From assembly GCA_965228875.1 (NCBI GenBank), contig OZ245843.1, positions 1,284,616 to 1,348,615 on the forward strand: DNA of 64,000 nt, read 5' to 3'. Positions within the stretch are counted from its first letter, which is position 1; every line of letters begins with the position of its first letter. Shown here in pieces: positions 18,643-64,000 of the stretch. The DNA comes from Thalassobaculaceae bacterium (GTDB lineage Bacteria > Pseudomonadota > Alphaproteobacteria > Thalassobaculales > Thalassobaculaceae). A program made the position numbers and the translations under genes. The notes under the pieces are model-generated. The model did not search any database. It saw only the letters and a program-made list of their open reading frames with translations, and was not told where the DNA came from.

Positions 18643-20908
18643 GGGATACCAGAGCCGGGTTGGTTTCGTTCAGGACCGTCGGCGGGACTGAAAACACCAG
18701 ACTGACGATCGCGCCGCCCTCGGGACGGTCTCGCAGTTCGATCGAGCCGTCATGATCTTCCATGATTTTCTTCACGATGGCCAGCCCGAGGCCGGTCCCC
18801 TTCTCGCGGGTCGTCACGTAGGGCTCGGTGAGCCGCGAGCGCTCCCCCTCCGGCAGCCCCCGGCCATTGTCGGCGACCGTGACCGCAACCGCGCCGTCCC
18901 GGCGCTCTATGCGGACGTCGATGACCCCGGGCTCCGCCGATCCGCCCGGACCGTTCTGGCGCCCCTCGATCGCGTCGACCGCGTTTTGCAGAAGGTTGGT
19001 CAGCGCCTGGCGCAGCTGGCGCGAATCGCACCGCAGCACAACCGGTTCGTCGCCCGTCGCCACGGAGAGAGCGACGCCGCTGCGCGCACCGCGCTGCAGG
19101 TCGACGGCGGCGACCACGAGTTCGCGCAGGTCCTCGTCCCGCATCACCGGCGTCGGCATCCGCGCGAAGGCGGAGAACTCGTCGACCATGCGCCCGATGT
19201 CGCCGACCTGACGGACGATGGTCTCGATCATCCGCGAGAAGGTGTCGCGGTCGGACTCGATCTCGTCGAGATACTTCCGCTTGAGCCGCTCGGCGGAGAG
19301 CTGGATCGGGGTCAGCGGGTTCTTGATCTCGTGGGCGATCCGCCGGGCCACGTCCGCCCAGGCCGCCTTGCGCTGGGCCGACAGCAGTTCGGTGACGTCG
19401 TCGAACGTCAGCACGTAGCCGGTGATCGCCCCATCGGAGACCTCGGCCGAGAGGCGGCCATGGAAGGTCCGGGTCTCGCCGCTGTCCAGGGTGACCGCGA
19501 TCTGATCCGTCGCCTCGCGCCACGGCCGCTGGGCCACCTCCGCCATCAGCGGCGCGAACGACGGCAGGGTGTCGGCGAAGTCGGTGCCTAGCTTCTGCTC
19601 CAGGTCGGTGCCCAGGAGCCGGCTTGCCGCCCGATTGGGCAGGTTGATCCGGCCCTCCTCGTCGAGTCCGACCACGCCGGAGGACACCCCGCCGAGCACC
19701 GCCTCGGTGAAACGCCTGCGGTCGTCCAACTGGGTGTTGGCCTCGACCAGTTCCTCGTGCTGCGACTCGAGCTGCGCCGTCATGCGGTTGAACGCCCGGG
19801 TCAGGCTCGCGACCTCGTCCAGACCGACCCCGAGCGGCACCCGCACGGAGAGATCGCCGTGCCGGACCCGCTCGGCGCCGTCGATCAGCGCGCTCACCGG
19901 GCGGACCAGCCGGTCGGCAAGCAGCAGGCCGACCCAGATCGCCGCCAGCAGGATCAGCAGGGCCACGAGCGCGAAGACGATGGCGAAGGTCAGCTGGAAA
20001 TCGAGCCGGCGCCCCTCCAACTCCTCGTACTGGGATACCGCCTGCTGCGTGTCCTCGACCCGCGCCAGCAATGCAGGGTCGACGAAGCGCCCGACAAACA
20101 GGAAGGTGTCGACGATCTGATTGAGCGCGACCAGCGCCCGGATCCGATCGTCGTTCTCGCTGGTAATGATTACAACCTCGCCCCGGCGTGCCCGCTCCAT
20201 CGCGATTTCCGGCAAGGGCTCGAAATCGAAGGCGAAGGACAGGCCGGTGCGAGCGTAGACCCGGCCCGCGCCGTCGAACACCACCGCCTCGGTCAGGTTG
20301 CGCACCGCCGCCTGGGCGGTGATCACCTGTTCGAAACGCCGACTGTCCGACAGCAGGAAAGGCGCCTCGCGGTTGAGATCGTTGGCCATCGCCAGCACAT
20401 CGCCGCGAATTGTCTGGCGGTGCTCCTCGAGATAGGCCTCGGCCACCGCCGCCGACTGGGTGACCGCCGTCGACACCCGTTCGCTGAACCAGCCGCGCAC
20501 GCCGAGGTCGAAGAACACGGCCGAGAAGACCGACACGATCAGCGTGGGAATGACGGCGATCAGGGCGAACAGCAGGGCGAGACGGACATGCAGTCGGGCG
20601 CCGGCATGGCCACGGCGCCGCTCGATCCAGATCCGCACGAGTTGGCGGACCACCAGCGCGCCGAGGCCGAGCAGGAACGCGATGTTCAGATAGACGCAGG
20701 CGAGGACCAGGTCGGGATCGGGACCGAGCGGACCGGACCGCGTGATCGCAATGGCGGTCGCCGCACCGGAGAGGATCGCCAGCAGGCTGAAGGCGACCGC
20801 CAGCTTGCGTTCCAGCGCGACCCGCCGGGCCCAGCGCCGGAACACCCGCCACAACGCGAGGCGGGACGGCTCCGCCGCGGTATCGCTCACCATGGAGGGT
20901 CCGGTCAT
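18632..20908 (-). CDS. ntrY: Sensor histidine kinase NtrY
   Basis: TMs, HAMP, PAS, AWADVARRIAHEIKNPLTPIQLSAERL, HATPase; start 20908 or 20893. Confidence 0.96.
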   Translation of the reverse strand: MTGPSMVSDTAAEPSRLALWRVFRRWARRVALERKLAVAFSLLAILSGAATAIAITRSGPLGPDPDLVLACVYLNIAFLLGLGALVVRQLVRIWIERRRGHAGARLHVRLALLFALIAVIPTLIVSVFSAVFFDLGVRGWFSERVSTAVTQSAAVAEAYLEEHRQTIRGDVLAMANDLNREAPFLLSDSRRFEQVITAQAAVRNLTEAVVFDGAGRVYARTGLSFAFDFEPLPEIAMERARRGEVVIITSENDDRIRALVALNQIVDTFLFVGRFVDPALLARVEDTQQAVSQYEELEGRRLDFQLTFAIVFALVALLILLAAIWVGLLLADRLVRPVSALIDGAERVRHGDLSVRVPLGVGLDEVASLTRAFNRMTAQLESQHEELVEANTQLDDRRRFTEAVLGGVSSGVVGLDEEGRINLPNRAASRLLGTDLEQKLGTDFADTLPSFAPLMAEVAQRPWREATDQIAVTLDSGETRTFHGRLSAEVSDGAITGYVLTFDDVTELLSAQRKAAWADVARRIAHEIKNPLTPIQLSAERLKRKYLDEIESDRDTFSRMIETIVRQVGDIGRMVDEFSAFARMPTPVMRDEDLRELVVAAVDLQRGARSGVALSVATGDEPVVLRCDSRQLRQALTNLLQNAVDAIEGRQNGPGGSAEPGVIDVRIERRDGAVAVTVADNGRGLPEGERSRLTEPYVTTREKGTGLGLAIVKKIMEDHDGSIELRDRPEGGAIVSLVFSVPPTVLNETNPALVSHGQ

Positions 20909-20937
20909 GAGGTTCCGGTCATGAGGTTCCGGTCATG
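20898..20937 (-). repeat. 14-bp tandem repeat (about 3 copies) reiterating the ntrY start
   Basis: Minus-strand unit ATGACCGGAACCTC; ATGs at 20936, 20922, 20908. Confidence 0.85.
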
Positions 20938-60882: not shown

Positions 60883-61581
60883 ATGTCGCCGACCCGCGCC
60901 CCTGGAGTCCCGCAATCCGCTGGTTCCCTGTTCCGCCAGTCCCGGCGACTGTTGAGATTCGTGCCGACCATCGGCCTGGTGGATTTGTGGCTGGAGGGCC
61001 TCGCCGCCGGTCCGGAGGCCGGTATTCCGGGTTTCGACCCGATCGATGCGCCAGCACTGCTCGGGTTTGTCTACATCCTGGAACGCGACGGCGATCACTT
61101 GCGCTACCGGGTGTCCGGTGAGTCGGTCAACCAGCTCTTCGGGTCGAACCACGCCGGCAAGCGGCTGGACGAGGTCGTGCCCCGAGGCGTTCACAGCCTG
61201 GTCGAACCGTATTTTCTCGACGTGCTCGACCGGAAGGCCTGCATCATGAAGGGTCAGGTCAGGCTGACCGGCCACCGCACCGCCGAGTTCGAGCGCGTTC
61301 TTCTTCCGGTTCATCGGGCCGGTCGAACCCAGATCCTCGGCGCGGTCGCGTTGAGCAACACCGCCACCCTGCGCGCCGAAGATCCGGTGCCACCGCCCGC
61401 CGATCCCGGATTTCACTTCACTCAGATCGACCTGAGCACCGGCGCGGTTGCTGAGAAGTCCGTGCCGCTCTCCGAGATCCCCGTCGAACAGCTCCCGTTC
61501 GAGGACCATGTCAGGCGTCGTTCCCGGGCGATGAACGTCAGCCGAGCGGTCGCTCAAAAAGATTTTGAAACAGAATGTTAA
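60883..61581 (+). CDS. Stand-alone PAS (PAS_5-like) domain protein
   Basis: FDPID.P.LL..VYILE....RYRVSG..V...FG...G..LDE, FER.LLP; start uncertain. Confidence 0.7.
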   Translation: MSPTRAPGVPQSAGSLFRQSRRLLRFVPTIGLVDLWLEGLAAGPEAGIPGFDPIDAPALLGFVYILERDGDHLRYRVSGESVNQLFGSNHAGKRLDEVVPRGVHSLVEPYFLDVLDRKACIMKGQVRLTGHRTAEFERVLLPVHRAGRTQILGAVALSNTATLRAEDPVPPPADPGFHFTQIDLSTGAVAEKSVPLSEIPVEQLPFEDHVRRRSRAMNVSRAVAQKDFETEC

Positions 61582-62017
61582 CGACGTATCCTTTACCTAT
61601 TGTCTCATCCAACTTGGCCAGCAGCCGCTCCTTGAGAAACTGCCGGTCGCCAATGCCGGGCGCGATATCCAGCGAGGCCAGGGCGTGGACATGCGTGATC
61701 ATCGCATCGACGATCCGCGGCATCTGCTGATTCACATAGGCCTGCTTCTCGCCGAACTCGACCTCGAGCAGAACATCCATAACCAGGAACCGATCGACAT
61801 CGCCATCCTCGAAGATCGGGATGGTCAGGGGGTCAAGGTCGATCAGCGTCGTGTTTTCGGGCTTCTTTTCCTCGACAGGCTCATCGGGGGTTTCCACCTC
61901 GATGCCGAGCATGGCCTGTACCGGCGGCGGCAGCAGGTCCGGCGCGAACGATGCGACTCCGAAGACGCCGCCGCCGATGAGGACGAGCAGGACGACGAGG
62001 ATGATGACGATCTTCAT
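61538..62017 (-). CDS. FliL-like protein
   Basis: N-terminal TM ending IGGGVFG, LDPL.IP, PRIVDA, V.NILF. Confidence 0.7.
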   Translation of the reverse strand: MKIVIILVVLLVLIGGGVFGVASFAPDLLPPPVQAMLGIEVETPDEPVEEKKPENTTLIDLDPLTIPIFEDGDVDRFLVMDVLLEVEFGEKQAYVNQQMPRIVDAMITHVHALASLDIAPGIGDRQFLKERLLAKLDETIGKGYVVNILFQNLFERPLG

Positions 62018-62031
62018 CGTTCGGCTTTCCC

Positions 62032-63024
62032 TCAGAAATGGCGCCAGCCCCGGGTCGCAAGGCCTTCCACCGGCTCACCGCCGCGGTCGAGTACGGCGAC
62101 GCCGCTGCCGGAGTCTACCCGACCGATGCGTGTGACGGATACGCCGGCGTCCCGTCCGGCCGCCATGACCCGCGCATCGGCTTCCGCAGGCGCGGTGAAC
62201 AGGAGCTCGTAGTCATCACCGCCCTCCAGCACCTGGGCGAAACGGTCGGGATCATCGCCCACCAGTTCCGCCGCCGAAGCCGAGAGCGGTACCGCAGGTG
62301 CGTCGACGACCAGCCGGACGCCGGAGCACGCCGCCAGGTGGCCGGCGTCCTGAACGAGGCCGTCCGACACGTCCATGGCCGCCGTCGCGACCCCGACGAG
62401 CCGGCATCCGAGGGCGACGCGCGGTCGCGGTAGGCGGTAGCGGTCGGCGAGATCGGCGAAACCGCCCATGATCGCGCCCCGGGCGACGTCGAGCCCCAGC
62501 GCCCCGTCACCGATCGTTCCGCTCACCCAGAGCGCATCGCCGTCGCGTGCCCCGCCGCGCCGCAGAGCGCTCCCCCTCGCCACCCGGCCGAAGGCGGTGA
62601 TCGACACGGTAACGGGTCCGGGCGTCGAGACGCTGTCTCCGCCGAGAAGATGCACGCCGAACGCGCTCTGATCGGCGGCCAGGCCGTCGGTGAAGGCGCC
62701 GAGCCATCCCTCCACGTCCGGCATGTCCCTCGGCAGGGCAAGCGCCAGGGTGTATCCCAGCGGCTCGGCCCCCATGGCGGCCAGGTCGGAGAGGTTCACC
62801 CGCAGCGCCTTGCGCGCCACGAGGTCCGGCGGGTCTCCGGGCAGGAAATGAACACCGGCGACCAGGGCATCGACGGTCACCACCCACGCCTCACTCGCGT
62901 CGATCTCGGGCAGTTCGGCGGCGTCGTCGGTCAGGCCGAAGGCGCCGGGCGCCTCCTTGGCCAGCGGCGCGAAGAACCGGGCGATCCTGTCGAACTCACC
63001 GAGCGTTGCGCCGTCCTGTGTCAT
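62032..63024 (-). CDS. thiL: Thiamine-phosphate kinase
   Basis: GEFDRI, DDAA, GVHF, NLSDLAAMGA, GGD, MDVSDGL, GGDDYEL. Confidence 0.96.
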   Translation of the reverse strand: MTQDGATLGEFDRIARFFAPLAKEAPGAFGLTDDAAELPEIDASEAWVVTVDALVAGVHFLPGDPPDLVARKALRVNLSDLAAMGAEPLGYTLALALPRDMPDVEGWLGAFTDGLAADQSAFGVHLLGGDSVSTPGPVTVSITAFGRVARGSALRRGGARDGDALWVSGTIGDGALGLDVARGAIMGGFADLADRYRLPRPRVALGCRLVGVATAAMDVSDGLVQDAGHLAACSGVRLVVDAPAVPLSASAAELVGDDPDRFAQVLEGGDDYELLFTAPAEADARVMAAGRDAGVSVTRIGRVDSGSGVAVLDRGGEPVEGLATRGWRHF

Positions 63025-63162
63025 CCCGTGTCCTGTGTCATCCCGTGTCCTGGGTCATCCCGTGTCCTGTGTCATCCCGTGTCCTGTGTCATCCCGTGTC
63101 CTGGGTCATCTCGTGTCCTGGGTCATCCCGTGTCCTGGGTCATCTCGTGTCCTGGGTCATCC
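63013..63162. repeat. 17-bp tandem repeat, about 8.8 copies, overlapping the thiL start
   Basis: Unit GTCCTG(T/G)GTCATC(C/T)CGT from 63013 at 17-bp period. Confidence 0.97.
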
Positions 63163-63172
63163 GGCATTCAGA

Positions 63173-63230
63173 GTTACCCTGCCCGAGTCTACCCTGCCCA
63201 GGTTCCCCTGCCCGGGTTCCCCAGCACTCG
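63173..63230. repeat. Degenerate 14-15-bp tandem repeat (about 4 copies)
   Basis: GTTACCCTGCCCGA, GTCTACCCTGCCCAG, GTTCCCCTGCCCGG, GTTCCCCAGCACTCG. Confidence 0.7.
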
Positions 63231-63258: not shown

Positions 63259-63771
63259 TCAGCAGGTCTTGTCGGTGAACTCGTCCTCGCGCAGCAGGCG
63301 GGCGAGGCGGTCGAGGACCGCGTTGACCAGCGCCGGCTCCCGTCCGGAAAAGAAGTCTCGCCCAAGCTCGACATACTCCGTGATGACGACCTTGGCCGGC
63401 ACATCGCCGAACGCGAGGAGTTCGTAGGCACCAAGGCGCAGAATCGCGCGCAGCAGCACCTCCAGCCGCGCGAGCTTGAACTCCGGCTCCAGGGCATCGG
63501 TGAGCATGGGATCGACCGTCGGCATGTCGCCGACAGCCCCCAGCACGAGCTTCTCGAAGAACAGGGCGTCGACAGGACCCGATTCGGTATCCTCGACGAT
63601 GCCGCGGAACCCGCTGGACACATAGGTCGGCACGACCTCATGCGGCGACGCCGCCACGATCTCGATCTCGTACAGTGCCTGTGCGGCCGCGAGGCGGGCC
63701 AGCGTTCGCGCGACGGACCGGCCCCGGCCGCGGGCGCCCGATGACCGGCTTGAGGACTTGGAGGAGGTCAT
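63259..63771 (-). CDS. nusB: Transcription antitermination factor NusB
   Basis: ARLAAAQALYE, RAILRLGAYEL, VP.KVVITEYV, VNAVLD. Confidence 0.95.
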   Translation of the reverse strand: MTSSKSSSRSSGARGRGRSVARTLARLAAAQALYEIEIVAASPHEVVPTYVSSGFRGIVEDTESGPVDALFFEKLVLGAVGDMPTVDPMLTDALEPEFKLARLEVLLRAILRLGAYELLAFGDVPAKVVITEYVELGRDFFSGREPALVNAVLDRLARLLREDEFTDKTC

Positions 63772-64000
63772 GACAGGGCGAACTGATGACGGAGCGAAAC
63801 CATGGCGAGGCAGGCCTCGGCAGCGTCCTTGCCCTTGTTCTTGCCGCTCTCGACACCGGCCCGCGCCCAGGCCTGGTCGCCGTTCTCGACCGTCAGGATG
63901 CCATAGCCGATCGCGAGGTTGTCGCGGATCGCCAGATCCTGGAGGCCGCGCGCGCTCTCGCCGCAGACATAGTCGTAGTGGCTGGTCTCGCCCCGGATCA
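63768..64000 (-). CDS. ribH: Lumazine synthase (3' part; truncated by window)
   Basis: Hand translation IRGETSHYDYVCGESARGL..YGILTVEN..QAWARA..KNKGKDAAEAC; ATGA overlap with nusB. Confidence 0.93.
   Translation of the reverse strand, partial: IRGETSHYDYVCGESARGLQDLAIRDNLAIGYGILTVENGDQAWARAGVESGKNKGKDAAEACLAMVSLRHQFALS

Follow-up and report, generated by a model that had tools for sequence, protein, structure and literature searches.

The thiamine-phosphate kinase gene thiL of a Thalassobaculaceae bacterium (assembly GCA_965228875.1, contig OZ245843.1) begins at the last of about nine tandem copies of its own start, and this 17-bp array forms a chain of eight minimal open reading frames (ORFs), each ending on the start codon of the next and the last on that of thiL. 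The array lies in a stretch of 64,000 nucleotides (positions 1,284,616 to 1,348,615 of the forward strand; hereafter the window, in which a coordinate equals the genome coordinate minus 1284615), for which an earlier note had proposed a ribosome relay tunable by copy number. The explanation that we consider likely is different: a young, copy-variable variable-number tandem repeat (VNTR) produced by slippage at the thiL start and tolerated since the upstream frames close on the next start. The anatomy of the array, its youth, its copy-number polymorphism and the recurrence of similar arrays are matters of direct observation, and they involve the following features of the window:

62032..63024, minus strand: thiL (thiamine-phosphate kinase), 330 amino acids; TIGR01379, 284.9 bits against a cut-off of 184.15
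63013..63162, minus strand: 17-bp tandem array; Tandem Repeats Finder (TRF) period 17, 8.8 copies, 94% matches, 0 indels, score 258
63021..63160, minus strand: chain of eight mini-ORFs of 21 nt each; ATGs, peptides and stops read from the sequence
63160-63140, 63143-63123, 63126-63106 and 63109-63089, minus strand: mini-ORFs 1-4
63092-63072, 63075-63055, 63058-63038 and 63041-63021, minus strand: mini-ORFs 5-8

The array has the highest score among the 68 TRF rows of the window and consists of near-identical units joined head to tail, as in a VNTR. In the minus-strand orientation the unit reads ATGAC(C/A)CAGGACACG(G/A)G and contains the thiL start codon, codons 2-4 and five extra bases (12 coding bases plus 5), with variation at two positions only, namely ACC/ACA, which is synonymous, and GGA/AGA, which exchanges Gly and Arg. 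The eight six-codon ORFs start at the ATGs 63160, 63143, 63126, 63109, 63092, 63075, 63058 and 63041 and encode MTQDTR (twice) or MTQDTG (six times) followed by a stop; in all eight ATGA overlaps the TGA and the following ATG have TG in common, the final overlap being with the ATG of thiL. An AGGA resembling a Shine-Dalgarno (SD) motif stands at -10 to -7, six nucleotides ahead of ATGs 2-9, while ATG 1 has no AGGA and is preceded by taactctgaatgccgg. Three ATGAs at 17-nt spacing were matched seven times in this genome, versus no match for the reversed control pattern, which indicates that the chain is not a product of chance. The TRF count of 8.8 copies and our reading of the sequence agree with what the earlier note had described, including the roughly nine-fold unit, the eight coupled MTQDT(G/R) frames with thiL at the ninth ATG, the AGGA before each downstream ATG and the synonymous character of the ACA/ACC variant; its arithmetic, by which 17 mod 3 = 2 preserves the relay at any copy number, is also correct.

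The thiL start is correctly placed. The TIGR01379 profile match begins at ThiL residue 9, and eight congeneric ThiL proteins (71-75% identical) start at an aligned ATGAC or ATGAG and have the same eight residues before a conserved GEF. This alignment of the congeneric starts identifies the ninth ATG of the array (63024) as the true start of thiL and indicates that the ThiL protein has been left unaltered by the array. The gene 3' of thiL (61538-62017, minus strand) shows a weak likeness to the flagellar basal-body protein FliL (NF009420, E = 2.8e-9, well below the cut-off). On the other side, the spacer toward the upstream gene nusB holds a second repeat:

63259..63771, minus strand: nusB; TIGR01951, 97.7 bits against a cut-off of 88.35
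63171..63222, minus strand: second tandem array, 14 bp x 3.6 copies; TRF score 60

The distance from the nusB stop (63259) is 98 nt to the first array ATG (63160) and 234 nt to the thiL ATG, compared with nusB-thiL spacers of about 21-46 nt in eight close congeners (read by eye, with putative nusB frames). The 14-bp array occupies much of the remaining spacer, is G-rich on the mRNA strand and unrelated to the 17-bp unit, and is itself copy-variable, one 14-nt unit being absent at 63192 in contigs of two public sequencing runs (X10 and X12). Together, the 17-bp and 14-bp arrays explain most of the growth of the spacer from the length seen in the congeners.

The array is young and is absent from sister species. 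No repeat was present upstream of thiL in any of ten same-genus genomes (the eight close congeners and two AT-rich members), and a pattern of two units had no match in the contigs of GTDB species-representative genomes. Neither this pattern nor a 33-nt stretch of the thiL 5' end gave a match in metagenome contigs, a search from which records near the genome itself may be excluded. Within the genome, the exact matches of the motif spanning the unit junction are the eight junctions of the array only, and allowing one mismatch added four single matches elsewhere, with one for the reversed control. Since the unit is made of the first codons of thiL itself and is found only at this locus, it was amplified in place, with no part for a dispersed element.

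The genome assembly is a single 4.96-Mb contig. All or some of the stretch is present in 20 of 24 listed public runs; these 20 come from 11 studies, and none of them is recorded as RNA. For the comparison, four runs were taken, each from a different study. Run X4, from a different study, carries the array as short unitigs without differences from the reference, and the depths of these unitigs divided by the reference 31-mer multiplicity are 12.4-17.0, against 12.8 and 17.1 in the flanks, a correspondence that provides independent support for the full structure of 8.8 copies. In run X6 the contig passes over 68 nt, which is exactly four units; in X10 and X12, which belong to two other studies, the gap is 102 nt, exactly six units. 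In all three the flanks differ from the reference by 0-2 letters per piece (pieces of 320 to 389 nt). The assemblies of the runs are short-read contigs built with k=31 and able to mishandle repeats. No 31-mer is repeated in the short alleles implied by these contigs, compared with 28 repeated ones in the reference allele, which fragments into unitigs of the expected depth in X4; the assembler could thus pass straight through the shorter versions, and we take the contigs to represent genuine alleles with about 4.8 and 2.8 copies. Copy number therefore differs by whole units between near-identical genomes, as judged from short-read contigs, and the variation that the earlier note had suggested looking for was found. 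The array is a copy-number-variable VNTR, a description that fits every feature tested.

The favoured explanation may be put as a sequence of steps. Replication slippage would have duplicated the start of thiL itself, that is, its ATG, codons 2-4 and five further bases. With an ATGA start and a 17-nt unit (2 mod 3), each upstream ATG would open a six-codon frame that closes on the next ATG, and a ribosome starting at a decoy copy would be released on the next start or handed to it, possibly with reinitiation. No out-of-frame reading into thiL would follow, and the ThiL protein would be the same at any copy number. Ribosomes could load at any unit, with neighbouring sites excluding each other: successive starts are separated by 17 nt, less than the width of a ribosome, and this mutual exclusion would lead to mild attenuation, partly offset by termination-reinitiation. 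The expected effect is small because the nine sites share a weak AGGA and a similar predicted accessibility, and since ThiL is needed in small amounts, changes in its output could drift. The array would persist, then, because it does little harm.

Predictions for the leader RNA give no sign of a dedicated device. All nine start sites have the same context and a similar predicted openness (0.43-0.64), and the predicted mean unpaired fraction is 0.525 for the array, against 0.36 and 0.31 for the flanks. For alleles with 0 to 8 upstream units, the thiL start has predicted accessibilities of 0.51, 0.67, 0.62, 0.60, 0.63, 0.48, 0.50, 0.48 and 0.49, respectively, without a trend. The predicted duplex of AGGA with the 3' end of 16S rRNA has an energy of -4.0 kcal/mol, identical for all nine sites including ATG 1 (spacing being ignored); the value would make AGGA a weak SD and does not tell the sites apart. 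In a simple flux model, each start receives the ribosomes that load on it directly and, in addition, a fraction e of those arriving from the preceding unit; the output then plateaus after 3-4 units for e <= 0.5, so that a rise from three to nine units should make little difference, and only near-perfect reinitiation would escape this saturation. Shuffled versions of the leader are predicted to fold more stably than the leader itself (z = +1.99), which argues against a structure-based device. A leader-peptide attenuator was considered and rejected on this folding score, on the lack of a terminator in the spacer (the sole terminator-like hit of the scan lies outside it, on the other strand near 63819-63833) and on the lack of any Rfam match for the leader at E <= 1.

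Experimental precedents exist for such overlaps. Of 14 gene pairs tested for translational coupling by termination-reinitiation at an ATGA overlap, 13 showed it, and SD removal lowered reinitiation in four of five Escherichia coli pairs (PMC6728339). In Sinorhizobium, an ATGA-coupled upstream ORF (uORF) shortened until the ribosome sites clashed gave lower translation of the main ORF, and strong inhibition followed when a 16-nt upstream site stood immediately ahead of the main one (PMC13285730). We infer that the mini-ORFs are translated; their net effect on thiL is probably small and, by analogy with the Sinorhizobium precedent, more likely negative, a mild attenuation.

Similar arrays recur in the same genome. 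TRF found 127 arrays with period 7-40 and at least 2.8 copies genome-wide, and many of these adjoin or overlap the 5' edge of coding ORFs. Shortlisting with a crude gene caller based on GC content at third codon positions (GC3; 3473 ORFs, 78% of the genome covered) gave 115 array/strand combinations at the 5' edge of a coding-looking ORF, with 50, 29 and 36 of them having periods of 0, 1 and 2 mod 3, respectively. An in-frame start codon was duplicated in 13 of the 115, and the period was 2 mod 3 in 8 of these 13 versus 28 of the other 102 (Fisher p = 0.023). Five of the 13 were dropped as ambiguous or because Pfam or SD evidence put the likely start downstream of the array: 1277487 (TatD), 4239749 (GntR), 2264526 (MraZ), 3961325 (NUDIX) and 4781301 (VIT1). 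Three more, whose periods are divisible by 3, were left out (2814240, 3678603 and 3828739) and two were added (3754294 and 4511645), which gave a set of seven credible duplications of a start or junction:

thiL: 17 bp x 8.8; ATGA, self-closing
ntrY, 20895..20937, minus strand: 14 bp x 3.1 (TRF); ATGA, self-closing, with two MTGTS-stop mini-ORFs
3754294 (C1:3754294-3754321, L034): 14 bp x 2; ATGA, self-closing
4115495 (C1:4115495-4115527, L036): 17 bp x 1.9; TGATG, self-closing
4511645, a GTPase gene (C1:4511645-4511677, L038): 17 bp x 2; GTGA, self-closing
4793735 (C1:4793735-4793763, L041): 14 bp x 2.1; GTGA, self-closing
4576246: 12 bp x 3.3; in-frame

Six of the seven have a period of 14 or 17 (2 mod 3) and are self-closing, and none has a period of 1 mod 3; among the duplications that are not in frame, 2 mod 3 was thus found in six of six (binomial p = 0.016). 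The third ATG of the ntrY array opens a 758-amino-acid protein with NtrY_N (PF19312, 144 bits), HAMP, HisKA and HATPase_c, and the second instance that the earlier note had reported at ntrY is genuine. The cases L034, L036, L038 and L041 are two-copy duplications of apparent stop/start gene junctions (the end of the upstream gene being read by eye), each leaving one mini-ORF of 5-6 codons between the copies. The genome is rich in short-period arrays, and others among them include C1:3981234-3981653 (15 bp x 28) and C1:1539896-1540028 (15 bp x 8.9), and very large coding repeat regions occur at C1:1632207-1640126 and C1:3520275-3531609, with periods of 27, 108 and 432 bp; the 27-bp unit reaches about 77 copies, and one of the regions lies inside an 18-kb ORF.

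Start-duplicating ATGA arrays are also common in the wider sample, for which 300 alphaproteobacterial genomes were scanned for series of three ATGAs spaced by 17 nt or by 16 nt. The two patterns had matches in 70 of 301 genomes each, with the genome under study included. Among the matches listed (10 of the 17-nt and 18 of the 16-nt pattern lie outside them), loci whose two spacers are clearly alike were chosen by eye. Matches that looked accidental were excluded, as were two loci lying at the end of a contig and four arrays of period 8 that fit the 16-nt pattern, and the remainder comprised 38 ATGA arrays with a 17-bp unit and 28 with a 16-bp unit:

17 bp: 38 loci, 14 with a long ORF (>= 100 codons) starting at the last ATG; 12 of these have Pfam matches and 2 a GC3 of 0.89-0.93
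16 bp: 28 loci, 7 with a long ORF (>= 100 codons) starting at the last ATG; 5 of these have Pfam matches

For comparison, among all ATGs of these loci the fraction that begins an ORF of >= 100 codons is 18%. In the 17-bp cases with Pfam matches, the match mostly begins within about 20 residues of the last ATG (enolase at residue 4, an epimerase at residue 3), the late-starting ones being DUF218 at residue 83 and UDG at residue 151; in one of the five 16-bp cases the gene starts at the next in-phase ATG. The share of arrays on gene starts, 14 of 38 for 17 bp versus 5-7 of 28 for 16 bp, does not differ significantly (Fisher p = 0.11-0.42). Periods of 2 mod 3 are thus clearly preferred in this genome, and the wider sample shows a modest preference at best, a pattern that fits a loose tolerance filter and not a designed relay. 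The earlier note had proposed a test for enrichment of lengths of 2 mod 3; the near-uniform outcome in the 300-genome sample came close to the result that it had named as refuting its own proposal. It had also suggested a recurrent design, of which the recurrence is real and the design is not borne out, given that 16-bp (1 mod 3) arrays are about as common and likewise lie on gene starts.

Some loci of this sample deserve mention in their own right. Two of the alphaproteobacterial genomes, G078 and G248, are unusually rich in ATGA arrays. The former carries a 16-unit, 16-bp ATGA array on the start of a pseudouridine-synthase-like gene (L101, C1:1898300-1901200; PF00849, PF01479) and a nine-unit, 17-bp ATGA array that opens no long ORF (L067, C1:117000-119800). 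One congener has a 17-bp chain of its own at a locus unrelated to thiL (G009 L042, C1:4127988-4131025), with four ATGAs and GGGGAG in each full unit; the frame of its last ATG has no Pfam match and is not coding-looking by GC position.

Several observations weigh against an array that is merely tolerated. With 8.8 copies, thiL has the longest 17-bp ATGA gene-start chain among the matches listed, the others having 3-4 ATGAs, and it ranks third in copy number among arrays of period <= 20 bp in the best 80 TRF rows of the genome; a purely neutral product need not reach such a length. All four alleles, from the four runs compared, retain at least about two upstream units, and this minimum could reflect a selected floor, although with n = 4 runs. 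The within-genome bias toward 2 mod 3 fits selection for a relay equally well as it fits mere tolerance. Besides, the sole AGGA in SD position for the true thiL start comes from the preceding unit, and the first duplication may have been beneficial; the congeners have no AGGA at the SD position of thiL, and some of them show other weak purine runs.

These observations lead to the strongest of the competing explanations, an adaptive rheostat in which every unit is a ribosome entry site and slippage heritably raises or lowers ThiL, as in a contingency-type locus answering a variable marine supply of thiamine. We consider it unlikely, and yet a number of points speak for it. Copy number varies among near-identical strains (8.8, 4.8 and 2.8), all alleles keep the relay and at least two upstream units, the array gives the real thiL start its only AGGA, and it is predicted to be more open (0.525) than its flanks. 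Moreover, translation was coupled at 13 of 14 ATGA pairs (PMC6728339), and uORFs and close upstream ribosome sites influence main-ORF output in an alphaproteobacterium (PMC13285730). However, the array is missing from all ten congeners, and retention of the relay follows automatically from slippage by whole units and hence does not count as a sign of selection. In the flux model, saturation is reached at about 3-4 units when the reinitiation efficiency is <= 0.5, predicted accessibility has no copy-number trend, AGGA is a weak SD (-4.0 kcal/mol), and 16-bp arrays, which do not provide a one-step relay, are about equally frequent and likewise sit on gene starts. The absence from the congeners, the lack of an accessibility trend and the saturation of the model also leave the copy-number-tunable relay of the earlier note without support, and the evidence favours the neutral slippage that it had kept as its null. 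The broader claim, that nine entry sites which compete or hand over ribosomes make up a heritable translational rheostat and that start-duplicating VNTRs are a general, overlooked source of expression variation, seems to us quite improbable.

A shield against the termination factor Rho, in which translation of the mini-ORFs would keep ribosomes on the enlarged spacer and block Rho-dependent termination before thiL, is very improbable. Long untranslated stretches can admit Rho, and the spacer has indeed grown to 234 nt. Rho loading sites are usually C-rich and G-poor, however, and the spacer RNA is G-rich (G 90 versus C 61), the 98-nt gap before the first ATG even more so (G 44 versus C 24). 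This gap lies outside the array and is untranslated in any case, and the array is itself the main cause of the length of the spacer; the shielding role that the earlier note had raised has no support here.

Insertion of a mobile repeat of the kind known as mycobacterial interspersed repetitive units (MIRUs) can be judged scarcely credible. MIRU units measure about 40-100 bp. The layout is nevertheless alike: copy-variable tandem repeats at gene starts whose repeat ORF ends on the start of the gene (-4 nt, ATGA), a coupling that likely eases insertion with minimal impact on expression, so that the same tolerance argument, of a gene translation little disturbed, applies to both (PMC12548453). 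The differences lie in MIRUs being longer, dispersed at many loci and apparently mobile, whereas the thiL unit has 17 bp, stands at one locus and consists of the gene's own codons, its first 12 coding bases plus 5, so that its origin is local. The unit is confined to this locus in the genome and absent from the genome and metagenome contigs searched; moreover, the first thiL mini-ORF is not joined to the nusB stop, from which the 98-nt gap separates it. The thiL array works like MIRUs and is not a member of them. An assembly artefact, which the earlier note had listed among the outcomes that could undo its proposal and to which tandem repeats are open, is practically negligible as an explanation, given a single-contig genome, a run (X4) that carries every array 31-mer at depths fitting the reference multiplicities and three further runs with shorter versions.

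The array can also be set beside other known systems. In classic contingency loci, a shift of the reading frame or of the promoter spacing turns the gene on or off. VNTRs and contingency loci share with the thiL array a strain-variable copy number that is driven by slippage at or near the 5' end of a gene, and they differ from it in that no copy number alters the frame of thiL. A phase-variable contingency locus was rejected on these grounds, the whole array lying upstream of the thiL ATG with the frame untouched, and the promoter scan of the region giving no sites. Gene pairs linked by termination-reinitiation have the same 4-nt stop/start overlap, and an SD motif inside the upstream frame for which AGGA is the candidate counterpart, but they are two real genes joined once, whereas the thiL chain consists of eight throw-away frames of six codons with starts 17 nt apart. 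Sinorhizobium meliloti, an alphaproteobacterium, has short uORFs that overlap the main start by ATGA; those described are single, non-repeated upstream sites with no tandem array or copy variation (PMC13285730). Our literature search found no paper on tandem arrays of short units in which a duplicated start codon gives rise to a chain of mini-ORFs. The nearest results are the account of MIRUs and, reportedly, TAACTGA intergenic repeats in Beggiatoaceae (PMC4679880).

Overall, the thiL array is probably a recurrent, harmless by-product and not a purpose-built device. About one fifth to one third of the sampled 16/17-bp ATGA arrays, among the matches listed, sit exactly on gene start codons, and because such arrays are frequent on gene starts, gene callers and analyses of ribosome profiling (Ribo-seq) data must expect strings of false starts. 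These loci also offer ready material for tests of ribosome-site competition versus reinitiation, and if the rheostat were true, they would represent a new class of quantitative contingency locus. As a tolerated VNTR, the array provides a clean natural example of how a genome tolerates the expansion of a repeat over a start codon, the combination of ATGA with a 2-mod-3 unit closing the decoy frames: thiL survives a nine-fold duplication of its initiation region, the copy number of which then drifts between strains.

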